Source: Pyrolobus fumarii 1A (lineage in GTDB: Archaea > Thermoproteota > Thermoprotei_A > Sulfolobales > Pyrodictiaceae). Taken from it: DNA of 32,000 nucleotides. Location: contig NC_015931.1 in NCBI RefSeq assembly GCF_000223395.1, positions 1,380,001 to 1,412,000 on the forward strand. The letters are read 5' to 3'. Below are positions 10,611-27,184 of this stretch, piece after piece. The position numbers were made by a program, and so were the translations under genes. Within the stretch, counting starts at the first letter, position 1, and every line of letters begins with the position of its first letter. The notes beneath the pieces are model-generated. The model was not told the DNA's origin and searched no databases. It saw only the letters and a program-made list of their open reading frames with translations.

Positions 10611-10889
10611 TCAGGGGTGGTAACACACACGTTTGTCTCCAACCTCGATGCACACCCTCTCAACGCGCTCAACGTCCCTAAGTCTAAGCCTAACCTCTCC
10701 TCCAGGCAAGAGCCCCAAGTCAAGCTTTACACGCTCAACAGCACGTCTAGGTTCAGAGCGCGGCTCGCGACGATCATAGGATAGAGGAGTTAAGAGGTAT
10801 TCCATCTCAACAGTGTCTATGCGCACACTCTCGTTACTCTCGTTCCGTATGATTAACCTTCCATTCTCTACACGCACACTAAACCTCAA
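10611..10889 (-). CDS. hypothetical beta-rich small protein (92 aa)
   Basis: TTG-initiated ORF ending 13 nt before the ESCRT-III start. Composition is typical of the local proteins. No family recognised and the start is uncertain. Confidence 0.4.
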   Translation of the reverse strand: MRFSVRVENGRLIIRNESNESVRIDTVEMEYLLTPLSYDRREPRSEPRRAVERVKLDLGLLPGGEVRLRLRDVERVERVCIEVGDKRVCYHP

Positions 10890-10963
10890 GAGCCTCAGCC
10901 CCCTCCGGATGGGGCCTTACTCATCGCTTAACGCTCGTACGCGGACCCACTCATCACCGGCTC
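10890..10963 (-). ncRNA. candidate C/D-box sRNA (atypical)
   Basis: The minus strand reads GAGCC-G-GUGAUGA-12nt-ACGA-GCGUUAA-GCGAUGA-22nt-CUGA-GGCUC. It has a perfect C box, a perfect D box and a complementary 5-bp terminal stem. The D'/C' boxes are degenerate and the second spacer is too long. Confidence 0.4.
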
Positions 10964-11012
10964 GGGTTGTTAAACCCCCAGCCACCATTCATTACCCTGG
11001 CCTCGGCGGGTG

Positions 11013-11054
11013 GACCCCCAACAGGGGCCGCATGCCCCAACGGATGAGGGGGTC
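11013..11054 (-). ncRNA. nested GC hairpin with an asymmetric internal loop (structured RNA candidate)
   Basis: The minus strand reads GACCCCC-UCAUCCGUU-GGGGC-AUGCG-GCCCC-UGUU-GGGGGUC (7 bp + 5 bp), read directly. It has the same layout as 27264-27309. Confidence 0.4.
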
Positions 11055-11103
11055 TGCTCTAGCCTATGGGCCCGGGTGTACAACTCGCCTAACCCACTGC
11101 TTG

Positions 11104-11847
11104 TCATATCATCCACTCGGGGAGCGGCTCACCTGGCTTGAAGAACCTCAGCGGCTTGATGCCAACACGCCTAAGACGCTCACGTACATGCGGGTATAGT
11201 ATCACATATTCCGGGTCGAGGTTCTCAACAAGTGCTGGGTGTATCTCGCTAAGCATTCTGATAAACTTGCGTATATCCTCGTCACGATCAAAACTCATCA
11301 TTAGAGCCGGGTAGACCTCGTCGCCAGGCTTTAACCCCTCTTCTATTAGCGTTCTCAACGCTTCTACCTGCACATACCAATAGCGCCTATCGACAAGCGT
11401 TATGCGCTCGAAGGTTTCTGGTTTAGCTCCTTTAATCGATACTCTCACCTCTATGCTACCCATAGACGCGAGATCGGCTATACTACGCGCAAGACGTCTA
11501 TCAAGGCCTATCAGCACACCATTAGTCTCTAGTATGAAGTGTAGCTTGTAATCACTGACTATGATCTTAGCCGCTTTGAGCATATGCTCGAACCATGCTA
11601 TTGTAGGCTCAGCCCCGCTAACACGCACCTGCCTTACTCGCCGCCTCATACAGAGCTCGTATAGCTTCTCAGCTACTTCCTCGGGTCTCGTCAGCTTGCC
11701 GGGTGTGTTAGGGTCCCTGCTGCGCGACCAGCAGAACACGCATCTGAAGTTACACCCGATGACGTCTGCTGTTGCTACACCACCGTACCAACGGTCAACG
11801 CGGAATCTGTAATAACGGCGTTTATCGCCATGTGTTGTAAGCTTCAC
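11104..11847 (-). CDS. small radical SAM protein (QueE/activase-like size class)
   Basis: CNFRCVFC (CX3CX2C) at nt 11731-11754 and a SGAEPTI glycine-rich motif. 247 aa, GTG start. Confidence 0.8.
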   Translation of the reverse strand: MKLTTHGDKRRYYRFRVDRWYGGVATADVIGCNFRCVFCWSRSRDPNTPGKLTRPEEVAEKLYELCMRRRVRQVRVSGAEPTIAWFEHMLKAAKIIVSDYKLHFILETNGVLIGLDRRLARSIADLASMGSIEVRVSIKGAKPETFERITLVDRRYWYVQVEALRTLIEEGLKPGDEVYPALMMSFDRDEDIRKFIRMLSEIHPALVENLDPEYVILYPHVRERLRRVGIKPLRFFKPGEPLPEWMI

Positions 11848-12063
11848 GGCTAGACTGGTAAGGTTTCGGGCATCAAAGGGCAGGGTCTACACCTCCTGTG
11901 GGGTCGGCAACCGGTGCACCATTCATCCCCCTGTACGCCGGGTCTATAGACGGGGTTTCTCCTCAACCCCCGACCTCGGGTTAAGATGGTAGGGGATGAT
12001 GTAGATTGCACGTCCCGGAGCCGGGCATGCCGGCGATGGTGAGCCTCCACCGGTGCTGACCCT
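11848..12063 (-). other. 216-nt GC-rich region with no credible ORF (leader or ncRNA candidate)
   Basis: Hairpins GGGGUU-7nt-AACCCC (11952-11970) and GCCGG-GCAUG-CCGGC (12020-12034), plus two copies of CACCGGTG. The only ORF here (99 aa) is R/C/P-rich and looks spurious. Confidence 0.35.
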
Positions 12064-17429: not shown

Positions 17430-17861
17430 TTGGGGCCGGTGGAGTTGGCTGCAATAGAGATAGCTGCTCAACGAGTTAAATTACCCAGCGGCCGGGAGAT
17501 AACGCCATTAGAGGCGTTGAAATTCTGCTACAACTTGTCAGAGACCGACATAGAGATACTGATCGTGATGCTGCAAGGTGGTAAGTATGACGTCGAGACT
17601 CTTGCAAACAAACTAGGGCTTAGCAAGGCTACCATTAACCGTTCATTAAACAAGCTAGCGGCGATAGGGTTCGTTGAGCGTGAAAGAGAGACGAGGAAGA
17701 CTGCGGGTAGGCCACGCTACTTCTACTATATACGCGACCCTGCAAATCTGCTATCAAAGATACAGAACGACCTAGACTTCTGTGCAAAAGCGTTCGAAGA
17801 GGGTATAAAGAACATGCTACTATCATCTCTACGCAAGGCTGTAGCCAAGACTAACGAGTAG
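17430..17861 (+). CDS. winged-helix transcriptional regulator (TrmB/MarR-like)
   Basis: ETLANKLGLSKATINRSLNKLAAIGFVERE is an HTH plus wing. 33-nt convergent overlap with the radical SAM gene. Confidence 0.7.
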   Translation: MGPVELAAIEIAAQRVKLPSGREITPLEALKFCYNLSETDIEILIVMLQGGKYDVETLANKLGLSKATINRSLNKLAAIGFVERERETRKTAGRPRYFYYIRDPANLLSKIQNDLDFCAKAFEEGIKNMLLSSLRKAVAKTNE

Positions 17862-18662
17862 ACTACGAGGAACCGAGCAGCAAAACGGATACACCCTTTG
17901 AATCAGCTTTTTCAGTCTTAATGTCGGCACGGCTATCCGGTCAAATACCGACATAACAATCTCTTCATAGTTTTTGAGGAACAGAGGACGCATGCAACCG
18001 AGTGAAACCTCGTTAACATATCCTCTTACCGTTCTAACTGCCAGCAACAATCGGTTGACCACATCCCGAGGCCTATGCTTTGTCTCAAGGTGATATAGCA
18101 TCACTAGGATGTCCGGCTTTACTAGACGAGCCAACATACTCAGCATTTCACTCTCTTCACTTACGCTTACACCAGGCAAGCCTAACAGAACATGAGGTGC
18201 TACATGGAAGCCCATGTCTTTCAACATAGCAGCATTGTATATGTAATCTATGGGCTTACGGTGCCATACATGCATCATGCTAAGATGCGTGTTGGTCAAG
18301 GGCACCTCATAGTCGATTACGTCTACTATGTCAAGCAACATCTTTGCTTGCTTTTCACTAATGAATCCTGTATGCATCGAGATTACAACTCTTGTTTTCA
18401 TTTTGAAGCGCTTTAACACTCCGATAAATGGCTCAAATGGCAGCCTTGCCTCACGGGTAAATCCTCCACTGATTAATATCCCGGTTACACCCTTGGAGAC
18501 AATCTTGTCCAGGAGTCTCTCTAGCATTGCAGGTGTGGGAGCGGGTATCATACCACGGAGCCATCTTCCACGACAGTAATCGCATTGAAGGCTGCAACTA
18601 TGCCCGGTTATGCTAATCGCTAGATACTTGTCACCAGGTTCGAATAGTTTGACTCTCCACAT
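17829..18662 (-). CDS. radical SAM protein, BioB/LipA-like
   Basis: GHSCSLQCDYCRG (nt 18573-18596) and ILISGG. Extra Cys in GCMRP and FCCS near the C terminus. Confidence 0.8.
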   Translation of the reverse strand: MWRVKLFEPGDKYLAISITGHSCSLQCDYCRGRWLRGMIPAPTPAMLERLLDKIVSKGVTGILISGGFTREARLPFEPFIGVLKRFKMKTRVVISMHTGFISEKQAKMLLDIVDVIDYEVPLTNTHLSMMHVWHRKPIDYIYNAAMLKDMGFHVAPHVLLGLPGVSVSEESEMLSMLARLVKPDILVMLYHLETKHRPRDVVNRLLLAVRTVRGYVNEVSLGCMRPLFLKNYEEIVMSVFDRIAVPTLRLKKLIQRVYPFCCSVPRSLLVSLGYSLA

Positions 18663-19579
18663 GCTCTTAGCGCCTCTAGAGCCTCATACACCTCTCGCTT
18701 GTCTGGCTCCCAGGGTATATTGTAGAGTGTGCCTCTTGGGCGCTCGTTGTAGTATGGGCGGTTACAAGCGGGGCACCCGCTGGTCACTATTGCACGCTCA
18801 ACAATCTCTAACGGCGGGGTTCTCTTCAACACCCAACCTTGTGGATTGAAAGGTGATGGTGTTATGTAGGAGTCAGGGTTTACACCCTCATCGAGCAATT
18901 GACGGTATAGTTGGGCGCCCCGATAGTAACATAGGCTTGGTGGCTTACCCCCCAGCTTAGCGCTAGGAGTGTATGCGAACAGAGCTATTCTGCCGCCAAG
19001 CCTCTTGACGTGTCTCATTGTAGCCGCTAGCTCACTGGCCTTCTCTCCAACACCGACTATGAGATGCACGTATACTCGCCTATCTCCAAACACTTCCACC
19101 GCATCTCGCAAAGTACGCATGTACAGGCTATAGGGATATGGTTTGCCTAGCTTCATAGCAAGCCTTGGCGTCGCTGCATCTAGCCCGATTCCCAGTGTCT
19201 CTACGCCTTCGTCTCTAAGCTCCTCTAGGAGCGGTTTACCCGCAACTGCTATCGAGACTGAAATACGGGGATTAACTCTTGCTATAATACGCACTAGCTG
19301 TACTAGTTTCCGTCCCATATTAGGTCCGATGACCGTCTGTATACATACGCGTTCAAATTCACTAAGAGCAGAGACGATCTCGCGCAAATCAACCTTGTAC
19401 CATGTTACTCTAGACAGCTTTACCCTCTCACCTGCAACGGGGGCACCACTCAACTCGCAATAAGCGCATGTAGCTACACACTTTCCGTCCATAAGTAGGT
19501 AGGCTACGCGTCTCATCCAGCGAGGGAGCTTCTCGCCACGCAGTACGAATAGAGTCGCCAACGAGACGTAGACATGCAC
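18620..19579 (-). CDS. radical SAM protein, BioB/LipA-like
   Basis: DGKCVATCAYCEL (nt 19457-19480) and a C-terminal GCPACNRPYYNE. Start is GTG at 19579, or alternatively ATG at 19516. Overlaps the next gene by 43 nt. Confidence 0.8.
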   Translation of the reverse strand: MHVYVSLATLFVLRGEKLPRWMRRVAYLLMDGKCVATCAYCELSGAPVAGERVKLSRVTWYKVDLREIVSALSEFERVCIQTVIGPNMGRKLVQLVRIIARVNPRISVSIAVAGKPLLEELRDEGVETLGIGLDAATPRLAMKLGKPYPYSLYMRTLRDAVEVFGDRRVYVHLIVGVGEKASELAATMRHVKRLGGRIALFAYTPSAKLGGKPPSLCYYRGAQLYRQLLDEGVNPDSYITPSPFNPQGWVLKRTPPLEIVERAIVTSGCPACNRPYYNERPRGTLYNIPWEPDKREVYEALEALRACGESNYSNLVTSI

Positions 19580-19618
19580 GGAAGCACCAGCCGGTAACCT
19601 TCAAAAAGGCGAATGGCG

Positions 19619-20023
19619 TTAAAACATATCGTTCTCGATGCCCTCTTCTGTAACATACTCTGCTATCTTCTCTGCCAGGACATCCTCTAATCTGCGAGCG
19701 TTTGGAGTCGTGTTACACTCGCAGAGGCAAAGATTACCGTCTTTGACTGCACGCGCCACTACCATGTAGTACACTATAGCCTCTCGTATGAACTGGGAGC
19801 GTGAGGTGTACCCCAATTCTTGCCACACGCGGTCGAGTTCCTCAACAAGACTAGACTCCATCTTAACCGACACTACCTTCTTTCTACCACCTGCTGGCAA
19901 TTCAAAGACGGTCGGCATGGAGCGAGGATGCATTATCATTCCAGCGTCACTGCTTGTGACATCATGTGTGAAGCTCTCAGCGTCTCTTTTACGGAAAGCC
20001 TCTCCAGCATTGTATGCAGCCAA
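19619..20023 (-). CDS. ribbon-helix-helix (CopG-family) DNA-binding protein
   Basis: KKVVSVKMESSLVEELDRVWQELGYTSRSQFIREAIVYYM is an RHH. The true start is more likely ATG at 19939, 19933 or 19918 than TTG at 20023. Confidence 0.7.
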   Translation of the reverse strand: MAAYNAGEAFRKRDAESFTHDVTSSDAGMIMHPRSMPTVFELPAGGRKKVVSVKMESSLVEELDRVWQELGYTSRSQFIREAIVYYMVVARAVKDGNLCLCECNTTPNARRLEDVLAEKIAEYVTEEGIENDMF

Positions 20024-20024
20024 G

Positions 20025-20098
20025 GCTCTAACACCGCGCCTACCGGTAACACCTACATACCTTGCTACACGCGCTTGAAGGCTACACCCTTGGCTCTA
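20025..20098. repeat. array of short direct repeats in a divergent promoter region
   Basis: TAACACC occurs at 20029 and 20047, GCTACAC at 20064 and 20081, and GGCTCTA at 20025 and 20092. The core (T/C)TA(A)CAC recurs 4 times, 17-19 nt apart. Confidence 0.6.
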
Positions 20099-23702: not shown

Positions 23703-23969
23703 ATGGCTCTTCAGTGGGAGCCCCAGTGGGAGGAGCTAGTTATTGAAAAGTGGGGTGTCAAGCTAAAAGTCAAGAAGGACAAAGTGACGGGTATGTATGC
23801 ATGCCCCATTTGCGGCATAAGCGACTCAGCAATATACTTCTTCAGTATAGAGGACTTGCTGAGACATATGCTCACGCACGCTAGACGCGAACGTATAGAG
23901 ACTATCCGTGTAAGCATCGAGGAGGGTGAAGAAGGCGCTAAGCTCGAGGAGATAGGGGAGGAGAGTTGA
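23703..23969 (+). CDS. small C2H2-like zinc-finger protein (88 aa) with an acidic tail
   Basis: C34-x2-C37-x17-H55-x3-H59 (YACPICG...LLRHMLTH). The stop overlaps the start of the next gene. Confidence 0.6.
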   Translation: MALQWEPQWEELVIEKWGVKLKVKKDKVTGMYACPICGISDSAIYFFSIEDLLRHMLTHARRERIETIRVSIEEGEEGAKLEEIGEES

Positions 23970-24859
23970 GCGCAGATAGGCTACACGTGTATGCTAACCC
24001 GACACTTGACGTCAAAGGGAGTCGCATCGAGGCTGGAGGGCCAGCCATCTACGCGGCAATCGCCGGACGTATACTTGGCTTCACTGTCTACGTGTATGGT
24101 GGCGTCGGCAGAGACGGGCACAGGGTAATCGCAGAGTACGTTCGTAGAGGTGTGAGGTTCGGTAAGCTCATCTTTAGCCTTGATGATGAGACAACACGCT
24201 TCCATATAGAGTACCGCGGTGATAAACGAGAAATGATAGTAGAAAGCCTTGGACCGCTAGTCCGTAGCACACCGATCAGAGAGCCGAGGATAGTCTCTCC
24301 CGTTCTACGTGAATATCCTAAGCCTCTGCTTGATCAATTACTGAGCGATGCATTTGTCGATATACAGGGCTTGGTTAGAGAGCGACGCGTCGGCCCATTG
24401 AGGCTCGTCAAAGGCGCATGTCAAGAGTTTAACCTCTCTAAGGCTAAGGCACTCCACGGCGACATTGACGAGATGATAGTATGTTTTAATGATAGTCTAG
24501 AGGCTGTGCTGGAGAAACTCTCTGAGTTGACCGGGGAGGGCGTGGAGATACTGCTATCCATGGGATACCGAGGGTTGCTTCTAGGCTACGATGGCGTCTG
24601 GTGGCATGTTAGGGCCTGGGGCCCACGCGCAACCGACCCGACTGGAATGGGCGATGTGCTAACATCTTCGTACGCCTATGCCAGATACATTCTTGGCCTA
24701 GAGCCTATCGAGGCTGCAAAGTTGGCGGTTGTTACCTGTGGGCTACACGCTAGGCGTACATACGAGGGTGTAGGCCTCGAGGATGTGAGGAAGTTTGCCA
24801 AGGAGGTTATAGCGAGCCGGGTTACACGCGAGGAGCTGTATAAGCATGCAAGTGTGTAA
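23966..24859 (+). CDS. PfkB-family carbohydrate/nucleoside kinase
   Basis: DPTGMGDVLTSSYA is the PfkB signature 2. Ribokinase-like length. TTG start overlapping the upstream TGA. Confidence 0.7.
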   Translation: MSADRLHVYANPTLDVKGSRIEAGGPAIYAAIAGRILGFTVYVYGGVGRDGHRVIAEYVRRGVRFGKLIFSLDDETTRFHIEYRGDKREMIVESLGPLVRSTPIREPRIVSPVLREYPKPLLDQLLSDAFVDIQGLVRERRVGPLRLVKGACQEFNLSKAKALHGDIDEMIVCFNDSLEAVLEKLSELTGEGVEILLSMGYRGLLLGYDGVWWHVRAWGPRATDPTGMGDVLTSSYAYARYILGLEPIEAAKLAVVTCGLHARRTYEGVGLEDVRKFAKEVIASRVTREELYKHASV

Positions 24860-24871
24860 GCTTACCGAGTG

Positions 24872-25324
24872 TTAAGCCATTGCAGCGGCTTCCGCGGGAG
24901 CAGCAAAGTGCCTCCTCCCAAGCGGGGCAAACTCTTGTGGCATGGGTACACGCTCGCTCCTTTCACCTAGTAGTGCTAGCACCGCATCGATTATCCTATC
25001 CTCGTTAAGGCTCTCAACGCCCACAGCTACAAGCTCACCATTAACCACTATGCGGGGGTAAGGCGCGTAACCTGGTGGAAGGTGGCCCCAATATTCAACG
25101 CGAGGCACTATGACCGCGTTAACGCCATACTCTTCGCGTAGCCTCTCCGCCGCGCGTCTCGCAACCTCCAGTGCATTCTCACTCTCGTCGTTAAGCGCCA
25201 TCACAACCTCTATAACAGCATCCTCGTTGGCCTCCAGCTGCATATCCATAGTGTCATACGATAGTAGACCTACGCCTAAGGTGGGAGTGGTGATTTCGCG
25301 CTCGACGTCTAATCCAACAGTCAT
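24872..25324 (-). CDS. hypothetical protein, possibly a thioredoxin-like fold without CxxC
   Basis: 150-aa ORF. YPRIVVNGELVAVG..IIDAVLALL resembles the C-terminal half of small thioredoxin-fold proteins, but no redox Cys is present. Confidence 0.45.
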   Translation of the reverse strand: MTVGLDVEREITTPTLGVGLLSYDTMDMQLEANEDAVIEVVMALNDESENALEVARRAAERLREEYGVNAVIVPRVEYWGHLPPGYAPYPRIVVNGELVAVGVESLNEDRIIDAVLALLGERSERVPMPQEFAPLGRRHFAAPAEAAAMA

Positions 25325-25516: not shown

Positions 25517-25750
25517 CTAGACAGCCGCCTTAGCCTCAGCTCTAGCTGTGTACATGGCCATTCTCCTAGCCTCAGCTATCCTGAGAGCCTCTATCACAAA
25601 CTCGTATGTCACCGGGTAGCCTAGAGTCTTCTCGTGCTTCACGAGTAGATAGTAAGCCTCAAGCTCATCGCTCACACCGTGCTTGAGTAGCAGCTCTACT
25701 GCTTTCTCGAGCGCCGTCTTACCCTTCTCACTTAGGTGCTCGAGGGGCAT
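25517..25750 (-). CDS. hypothetical helical protein (77 aa)
   Basis: I chose the ATG at 25750 ([10 protein letters not shown]..). The longer ORF would overlap the glyA promoter. No family recognised. Confidence 0.4.
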
Positions 25751-25810
25751 ACACTCTACCCAAGTTATCCGCGTAATACCCACTCCTTTATCCAAAACGG
25801 AGGGTGCCGG

Positions 25811-25816
25811 TTTAAA
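25811..25816 (+). promoter_or_regulatory. TATA-like box upstream of glyA
   Basis: TTTAAA lies about 45 nt before the TTG at 25859. This argues against the ATG at 25736 as the glyA start. Confidence 0.45.
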
Positions 25817-25858
25817 GGATGGGAGACGCTGCACGCTGCACACGGGGCTGGCGAGCTA

Positions 25859-27184
25859 TTGGTCTCGTGGGATGAGATACTCGCACGCCTACCCTCAGAG
25901 GTGCGCGAGGTTATCGAAACCACAAGGGCACATAACCGTTGGAGACGTGAAACAATAAACCTGATTGCAAGTGAGAACGTGATGAGCCCCCTTGCAGAGG
26001 CAGCCTACCTCAACGATATGATGCACCGTTATGCTGAAGGTAAGCCCCGGAAGAGGTACTATCAAGGTCTACGCTACGTGGATGTCGTGGAAGAACTAGT
26101 GATGAAGTATATGGGCGAGCTTCTAGGCGGTGCGTTTATCGAGCCTCGGCCCGTGAGCGGCACAATCGCTAATGCTACAGTTTTCAGAGCACTCGCCTCA
26201 TGCCCCTCTAGCGAGGGGCGTCCTAAGGCTCTGATAGCCCCGGTTCAGGCCGGCGCCCATGTAAGCCATACAAAGTTTGGTACACTTGGCGCCCTCTGCA
26301 TAGAGCATATAGAGTTGCCCTACGACCCCGACAATCTCAACGTCGATGTTGACAAGGCTGTTAAGATGATAGAGGATGTTAAACCCGTCTTTGTCGTGCT
26401 CGGCGGCAGCCTCTACCTATTCCCGCACCCAGTCCGCGAGATAGCTGAGGCCGCACACTCTGTCGGTGCAAAACTCGTCTATGATGCTGCACACGTACTG
26501 GGACTCATAGTTGGCAAGAGGTGGAGGAACCCGCTGGATCACGGAGCCGATATAATGACCGCATCTACGCACAAGACGTTCCCAGGGCCGCAAGGAGGGA
26601 TCATAGCTACGCGTCAAGAGGATCTCTACAAGGCCGTGTCGCGCATAGTGTTCCCGTATTTCGTGAGCAACCATCACCTTCACAGACTTCCAGCCCTCGC
26701 AATAACAGCGCTTGAAATGAAGTACTACGGCGAGGCTTATGCCGACCAAGTTGTGAGGAACGCCAAGGCACTAGCAGAAGCGCTGGCAGCGGAAGGATTC
26801 AAGGTACTCGGTGAGCATCTCGGATACACGCGCAGCCATCAAGTAGCTGTTGACGTAAGGGAGTATGGAGGTGGTGCTAAGGCTGCACAACTCCTCGAAG
26901 AAGCAAACATAATCGTGAATAAGAACCTCCTGCCGTACGACCCGCCAGATGCGATCAAGAACCCAAGCGGCCTGCGCCTAGGGGTCCAGGAGATGACTAG
27001 ATGGGGCATGAAAGAGGATGATATGAGGGAAATTGCGCGATTCATGCGCAGAGTGGTTATCGACGGCGAAGATCCGGCAAAGGTTAGGAAAGAGGTTGTA
27101 GAGTTCCGCAGGAACTTCCAGAAGGTACACTATGCGTTCGACGTAGACCCTACCGAAAATGGTAAGCTATTACTACTCTATTGA
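25859..27184 (+). CDS. glyA: serine hydroxymethyltransferase
   Basis: [28 protein letters not shown] and the PLP-lysine motif [12 protein letters not shown]. Start is TTG at 25859, or alternatively GTG at 25901. Confidence 0.9.

Follow-up and report, generated by a model that had tools for sequence, protein, structure and literature searches.

In a 32,000-nucleotide stretch of the Pyrolobus fumarii 1A genome (the window), two overlapping radical S-adenosylmethionine (SAM) genes on the minus strand very probably encode a diverged archaeal two-enzyme lipoyl synthase, LipS2 followed by LipS1, which would make the lipoyl cofactor of GcvH. The best-family hidden Markov model (HMM) matches, the conserved cluster ligands and the reciprocal best hits agree on this assignment, which an earlier, sequence-only reading of the same DNA had inferred. 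The pair is a diverged member of a system already reported to be widespread in archaea. It lies between a ribbon-helix-helix (RHH) gene and a convergent winged helix-turn-helix (wHTH) regulator gene, as follows:

17430..17861, plus strand: Lrs14/Sta1-type wHTH regulator gene, convergent with lipS1
17829..18662, minus strand: lipS1, radical SAM, 277 aa, ATG start
18620..19579, minus strand: lipS2, radical SAM, 319 aa, GTG start
19619..20023, minus strand: RHH gene upstream of lipS2, 134 aa, TTG start

The list of open reading frames (ORFs) reproduces exactly the three co-oriented genes first described at 17829-20023. RHH and lipS2 are separated by a 39-nt spacer (19580-19618), and lipS2 and lipS1 overlap by 43 nt (18620-18662), with the lipS1 start sitting within lipS2. 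Homologues of the two radical SAM proteins reach E-values of 1e-82 and 2e-95, and the Pfam domain Radical_SAM (PF04055) was matched by LipS1 at 8.7e-9 and by LipS2 at 2.3e-12. The RHH protein matched PF01402 (RHH_1) over residues 51-83 with 28.7 bits (gathering threshold 20.5) and an E-value of 1.2e-6. Because of these homologue and Pfam matches, we regard the lipS1, lipS2 and RHH ORFs as real genes rather than chance reading frames. The LipS1 N-terminus, MWRVKLFEPG, aligned with position 1 of the Thermococcus proteins, and YVSLAT, directly after the LipS2 GTG, is kept as protein in one relative. These N-terminal matches to homologues support both start calls. A database copy of LipS2 starts 6 codons later (313 aa), from which the gap to RHH would be 57 nt.

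Assignment of the two radical SAM proteins

The translations were compared with the NCBIfam equivalog models of the archaeal lipoyl synthases. The 319-aa protein matched the LipS2 model NF053743 with an E-value of 1.2e-65 and 221.9 bits, residues 4-289 aligning with model positions 2-292, and a C-terminal tail of ~30 aa extends past the model. The 277-aa protein matched the LipS1 model NF053742 with an E-value of 2.5e-54 and 184.7 bits, residues 7-256 aligning with positions 1-257 of 268. Each protein matched its own LipS model and not that of the other, and for each the best NCBIfam family was the matching LipS equivalog; LipS1 had no other strong family match.

LipS2 (TK2248) and LipS1 (TK2109) were reportedly described in Thermococcus kodakarensis by Jin et al. 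in 2020. Orthologues from Thermococcus metagenome-assembled genomes (MAGs) that score above the curated cut-offs stood in for TK2109 and TK2248 in our searches; the MAG LipS1 proteins score 342-356 bits on the LipS1 model, and a LipS2 homologue from T. gammatolerans (P0190) reaches 377 bits, above the cut-off. Searching the genome by tblastn with four Thermococcus LipS1 proteins returned a sole match, genome positions 1397925-1398662 (lipS1). Five Thermococcus MAG LipS2 proteins gave their best match at 1398668-1399507 (lipS2), with E-values of 3e-36 to 6e-52. The pair and the Thermococcus MAG orthologues are reciprocal best hits, the comparison that had been proposed as a check on the LipS1/LipS2 assignment. 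Three of the five LipS2 queries also gave a much weaker second match to another radical SAM gene, with E-values of at least 2e-7. This lone, weak LipS2 paralogue-like match is a 346-aa radical SAM protein at genome positions ~10886-11926 on the minus strand; among protein families it is closest to the UDG-linked DNA modification/repair family TIGR03916, at 182.7 bits, below the cut-off.

Mutagenesis by Neti et al. 2022 assigned C39/43/46 of T. kodakarensis LipS2 to the radical SAM cluster and C85, C276 and C279 to the auxiliary cluster; in LipS1 the corresponding residues are C27/31/34 and C230, C276, C277 and the conserved H159 (PMC9585515). The cysteine motifs quoted in the sequence-only reading (DGKCVATCAYC, GCPACNRPYYNE, HSCSLQCDYC, GCMRP and FCCS) were all found in the radical SAM translations. 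The window LipS2 has cysteines at positions 34, 38, 41, 79, 217, 269, 272 and 307, and LipS1 at 23, 27, 30, 223, 261 and 262. In an alignment of 124 LipS2 sequences, C34/C38/C41, C79 and C269/C272 align with T. kodakarensis C39/43/46, C85 and C276/279 and are 99-100% conserved, the auxiliary-ligand columns C79 and C269/C272 (GCPACNRP) being invariant. In the corresponding alignment of 121 LipS1 sequences, C23/C27/C30, H157, C223 and C261/C262 align with T. kodakarensis C27/31/34, H159, C230 and C276/277, a numbering inferred via a Thermococcus orthologue whose cysteine pattern is that of T. kodakarensis shifted by one residue. Conservation of these positions is 98-100%: 98% for the radical SAM cysteines and 100% for C223 (GCMR), C261/C262 (FCC) and H157 (PH). 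Most other family-invariant residues are also kept in both proteins. The extra C-terminal cysteines, previously put forward as possible auxiliary-cluster ligands, are among these near-invariant positions.

We also considered LipA, which carries out the same overall reaction using radical SAM chemistry and a sacrificial auxiliary [4Fe-4S] cluster. In contrast to the pair, LipA inserts both sulfurs as a single protein, beginning at C6, and carries an N-terminal Cx4Cx5C and a C-terminal RSSY motif. The window proteins have no such cysteine spacing, Cx4Cx5C being missing in both, and they score no more than about 19 bits on the LipA models; the maximum was 19.1 bits on TIGR00510, against a cut-off of 310. 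A LipA identity was rejected. A sequence search of the PDB with LipS1 and LipS2 found no solved relative for either protein.

Proposed lipoylation pathway in the genome

The host genome is a single contig of 1,843,267 bp with 54.9% G+C. It encodes GcvH (166.8 bits, above the cut-off), which is the sole Biotin_lipoyl-domain protein in the genome, together with GcvPA/PB, GcvT and an Lpd-like flavoprotein. The only BPL_LplA_LipB protein in the genome has LplA_large as its best family, at 200 bits. The genome-wide check for lipA, LplA and H-protein genes that had been recommended earlier thus revealed LplA, GcvH and a glycine cleavage system, and no canonical lipA; across the genome, the LipA models score highest on LipS2 itself, with 18.5 bits. 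Since one protein is in need of lipoylation and LipA is absent, the lipS pair provides the only candidate sulfur-insertion enzymes. P. fumarii 1A is a chemolithoautotroph (PMC3156397), and lipoate salvage is therefore unlikely to suffice. The gene for serine hydroxymethyltransferase (SHMT), glyA, is also nearby, as had been remarked, at 25736-27184 of the window.

Homology, ligand conservation, the pairing of the genes and the need of the genome for the pathway are observed directly. The order of sulfur insertion, the cluster types and the protein-bound substrate are inferred by analogy with the T. kodakarensis enzymes, via the conserved ligands. In the first step of the proposed route, a split ligase, composed of LplA and a weakly matching LplB candidate, would put octanoate on the lipoyl lysine of GcvH. 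Both LipS enzymes would then work with 5'-deoxyadenosyl radicals derived from SAM and sacrifice an auxiliary [4Fe-4S] cluster. LipS2 would cleave SAM at its CX3CX2C [4Fe-4S] cluster, take a hydrogen from C8 and give C8 a sulfur from the auxiliary [4Fe-4S] cluster bound by C79, C269 and C272; its predicted product is 8-mercaptooctanoyl-GcvH. LipS1 is predicted to act likewise at C6, where the added sulfur would finish the lipoyl group, with an auxiliary cluster bound by C223, C261, C262 and probably H157. The resulting lipoyl-GcvH would then serve the glycine cleavage system.

In T. kodakarensis, LipS2 acts first, at C8, and LipS1 second, at C6, as sequential enzymes (PMC9585515), and a complex between LipS1 and LipS2 is not established in the literature consulted. 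The sequence-only reading had proposed a possible 'two-subunit' synthase; a pair of enzymes is what we find, but the description as subunits goes beyond what is known of the T. kodakarensis proteins, and 'two sequential enzymes' is the better wording. The two species are alike in having two BioB-like radical SAM proteins (~280 and ~310 aa) with CX3CX2C and the same auxiliary ligands, and in their background, in which GcvH is the only lipoyl protein, the LplA/LplB ligase is split and LipA is missing. They differ in gene order, since the T. kodakarensis lipS genes are >130 genes apart, whereas those in the window are adjacent and overlap by 43 nt. This overlap fits translational coupling that balances both enzymes. 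The lipS2/lipS1 overlap is 40-55 nt in two relatives and 4 nt in several other families.

We then surveyed 29 genomes of the window's family, to which all family-level counts refer. The 17 genomes with LipS1 are exactly those with LipS2, and every genome with the diverged LipS type also has GcvH. LipA was found in only two genomes, G082 (315 bits) and G014 (a contig-end fragment), both without LipS1 and LipS2, and LipA and LipS1/LipS2 therefore appear mutually exclusive inside this one archaeal family. Two further genomes, G056 and G067 (genus g5, 99% complete), keep GcvH, and no LipS1, LipS2 or LipA was found in them; they may use lipoate salvage or an unrecognised synthase.

The RHH gene as a conserved neighbour

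The RHH gene had been grouped with the pair as a regulator, a link that is not supported. RHH orthologues are present in 27 of the 29 family genomes, including those with lipS hundreds of kb away or without lipS. Sampling of four other genera showed HSP20-ZPR1-RHH followed by a convergent Lrs14, with nothing between RHH and Lrs14; in those genomes lipS2-lipS1 is either hundreds of kb off beside a divergent lplA or absent. Two genera alone, that of the window and g38, have the pair between RHH and Lrs14. Because the RHH–Lrs14 order stands without lipS in other genera, RHH is the resident at this locus and the lipS pair the newcomer, which came beside RHH in the lineage of these two genera. The RHH gene, found beside ZPR1 and Lrs14 even where lipS is elsewhere or missing, thus belongs to the conserved surroundings across the family and forms one border of the insertion, rather than being a component dedicated to lipS; the Lrs14/Sta1-type gene forms the other border. 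The product of the latter scored above the cut-off on both NF053606 (Sta1, 125.1 bits) and NF040939 (Lrs14, 123.9 bits). Its 3' end overlaps that of lipS1 by 33 nt (17829-17861), and by 33-76 nt in three relatives; transcription of these convergent genes must therefore collide or yield an antisense overlap.

The closest homologues of the pair, from MAGs and with 47-54% identity, share 10 kb of synteny with the window in the order PfkB-CBS-GGR-HSP20-ZPR1-RHH-lipS2-lipS1, a convergent Lrs14, and DUF123-CitMHS-MoeA-MoeA. In the window, two ORFs between the CBS gene and glyA, 23966-24859 (297 aa) and 24872-25324 (150 aa), have no Pfam match at E<=1e-5. The G+C content of lipS1 is 45.9%, the lowest among the local genes measured, and that of lipS2 is 51.5%, compared with 54.9% for the genome. 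We considered low G+C as a signature of recent transfer and dropped it, since the conserved neighbours Lrs14, RHH, ZPR1 and CBS are likewise low (47.6-49.2%); this is a regional feature and not diagnostic.

A single regulated operon of RHH, lipS2 and lipS1, in which RHH is a dedicated regulator such as an Fe-S or redox sensor acting through a CxCxC tail, is unlikely. The three genes are co-oriented with a gap of only 39 nt, and the arrangement is kept in relatives at ~50% protein identity; however, the whole 10-kb neighbourhood is syntenic in those relatives, so the conserved order is unspecific, and the four genera in which RHH is directly followed by Lrs14 indicate that the adjacency arose by insertion. 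The CxCxC motif (LCLCEC, window 19697-19735) lies in the C-terminal tail just past the RHH fold and could bind a metal or respond to redox state. It is kept without exception in the aligned genomes with adjacent lipS, which are those of the window's genus plus two unassigned MAG contigs, but it also occurs in one g3 genome (RCRCDC) in which lipS is not adjacent. The RHH tails of genera g2, g4 and g5 are without CxCxC and are acidic instead. The 8-mer GTTACCGG, present upstream of RHH and again inside the RHH–lipS2 spacer, was considered as an RHH operator. This candidate was rejected as a chance occurrence: the two copies in the window are among 54 in the genome, where ~66 are expected, and the corresponding spacers of three relatives lack the 8-mer. 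No conserved RHH-type operator was found in the RHH–lipS2 spacer, the sequence of which is not conserved.

Behind the RHH stop codon there is a T5 run, possibly an archaeal terminator, and ~25 nt ahead of the lipS2 GTG there is a T-rich box. Together, these elements would fit termination after RHH and a separate, leaderless lipS2-lipS1 transcript, although read-through from RHH into lipS is possible. A scan for bacterial-type promoters and terminators gave shuffle-level results, such models being uninformative for an archaeon. Upstream of RHH, a GTGTTACCGG-like element at 20036-20050, at most ~25 nt from the annotated RHH start, is kept in three relatives with the same arrangement, within spacers that have otherwise diverged. 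The element may be an operator or a promoter, or it may belong to a mis-called RHH 5' end, and it overlaps phased repeats.

We also asked about the identity of the RHH protein with the aCcr1 model NF053762. The cut-off of this model is 60 bits; the protein scan gave 31.5 bits and the genome scan 33.1, and an aCcr1 identity was rejected. Two true aCcr1-family genes lie elsewhere, at genome positions 1137170-1137283 (78.7 bits) and 1759289-1759402 (71.3 bits); both are above the cut-off, so the genome has two candidate cell-cycle RHH regulators.

A more elaborate scenario starts from a lipS pair that was horizontally acquired or strongly accelerated and came to lie behind the CxCxC-tailed RHH gene in the genus of the window and in a sister genus. 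The pair would be read through from the RHH promoter and would have fallen under the control of an RHH circuit that senses metal, redox state or Fe-S. We consider this a long shot. If it were true, synthesis of the lipoyl cofactor, which consumes Fe-S clusters, would have come under such a circuit; an RHH-type regulatory link of this kind to any lipoyl synthase is not described in the literature consulted.

Divergence, origin and significance of the pair

Several observations weigh against the assignment as LipS2 and LipS1. The scores of 221.9 and 184.7 bits both fall under the curated equivalog cut-offs of 270 bits for NF053743 and 230 bits for NF053742, which are annotation thresholds and not biochemical features; the NCBI pipeline would therefore leave the pair unnamed. 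Identity to the Thermococcus proteins is low, at ~28% for LipS1 and 31-39% for LipS2. In the genome, lplA is not beside the lipS pair, unlike in most relatives; it lies ~720 kb away with a 100-aa downstream ORF that is only a weak LplB-like candidate (24.6 bits against a cut-off of 65). Finally, the stem of the clade to which the pair belongs is long, at 0.79-0.99 substitutions per site, and of equal length in both proteins; a shift in specificity is therefore possible on sequence grounds.

To place the pair we built three trees, of LipS2, of LipS1 and of the concatenated proteins. Each tree groups the window proteins with their nearest relatives in a clade with full support. In the concatenated tree, this clade is nested among sequences that pass the LipS cut-offs, inside a radiation at the level of the order whose sister is Thermococcus and which includes pairs above the cut-off. 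We attribute the sub-threshold HMM scores to the long stem of the clade.

The typical archaeal arrangement is a lipS2-lipS1 pair linked to lplA, as described by Tanabe et al. 2023 (PMC10332631). The lplA-linked clusters of the same family and order resemble the window locus in their lipS2-lipS1 order, their tight or overlapping junctions and their pathway partners, whereas the window pair lies between RHH and Lrs14, with lplA-lplB far away. The lplA-linked pairs of the same family have only ~40% (LipS2) and 33% (LipS1) identity to the window pair and are not its sister group. An approximately unbiased (AU) test rejected the window clade as sister to them (p = 0.00013), a result to which long-branch and composition caveats apply. 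These comparisons suggest that the pair originated by replacement through transfer, or at least had a non-vertical history, in agreement with the many transfers that Tanabe et al. inferred for LipS1/S2 (PMC10332631). Pyrolobus, Pyrodictium and Hyperthermus are unmentioned in the accessible part of the supplementary files of that study (PMC10332631). The lplA-linked LipS pairs of the family's other genera group with part of another family (f10), with 100/99 support, which is a second sign of lipS cassette transfer inside the order.

The low scores, the long stem of equal length in both proteins, the separation from lplA and the outcome of the AU test could also mean that the pair has changed function and inserts sulfur or another group into a substrate other than octanoyl-GcvH. 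We regard this as very improbable, given that both proteins keep every catalytic and auxiliary-cluster ligand and most of the family-invariant residues, that the autotrophic host has no other lipoyl synthase in a genome keeping GcvH, GcvP, GcvT and LplA, and that both genes are retained jointly in every genome of the window clade. That one or both genes encode a biotin synthase can be dismissed: several database homologues carry that name (or only 'radical SAM protein') and a Thermococcus LipS2 shows weak BioB similarity (47.9 bits), but neither window protein matched the BioB model, the BioB family (TIGR00433) had no match in the genome at E<=0.001, no biotin carrier domain beyond the GcvH lipoyl domain, BirA candidate or second BPL-family ligase was found there, the sole BPL_LplA_LipB protein being LplA-like, and Thermococcus proteins formerly annotated as BioB have been shown to be lipoyl synthases (PMC9585515).

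The assignment as LipS2 and LipS1 gives a function to two genes otherwise named only 'radical SAM protein' or 'biotin synthase'. It also brings to light an entire clade of genuine-looking LipS pairs that lie below the curated thresholds and could guide adjustment of the models. The locus is a cautionary case as well, in that tight, co-oriented spacing with a small regulator gene reflects insertion beside a conserved neighbour and not a dedicated regulator. Collectively, these results point to a coherent de novo lipoylation route for glycine cleavage in one of the most heat-tolerant autotrophs known.

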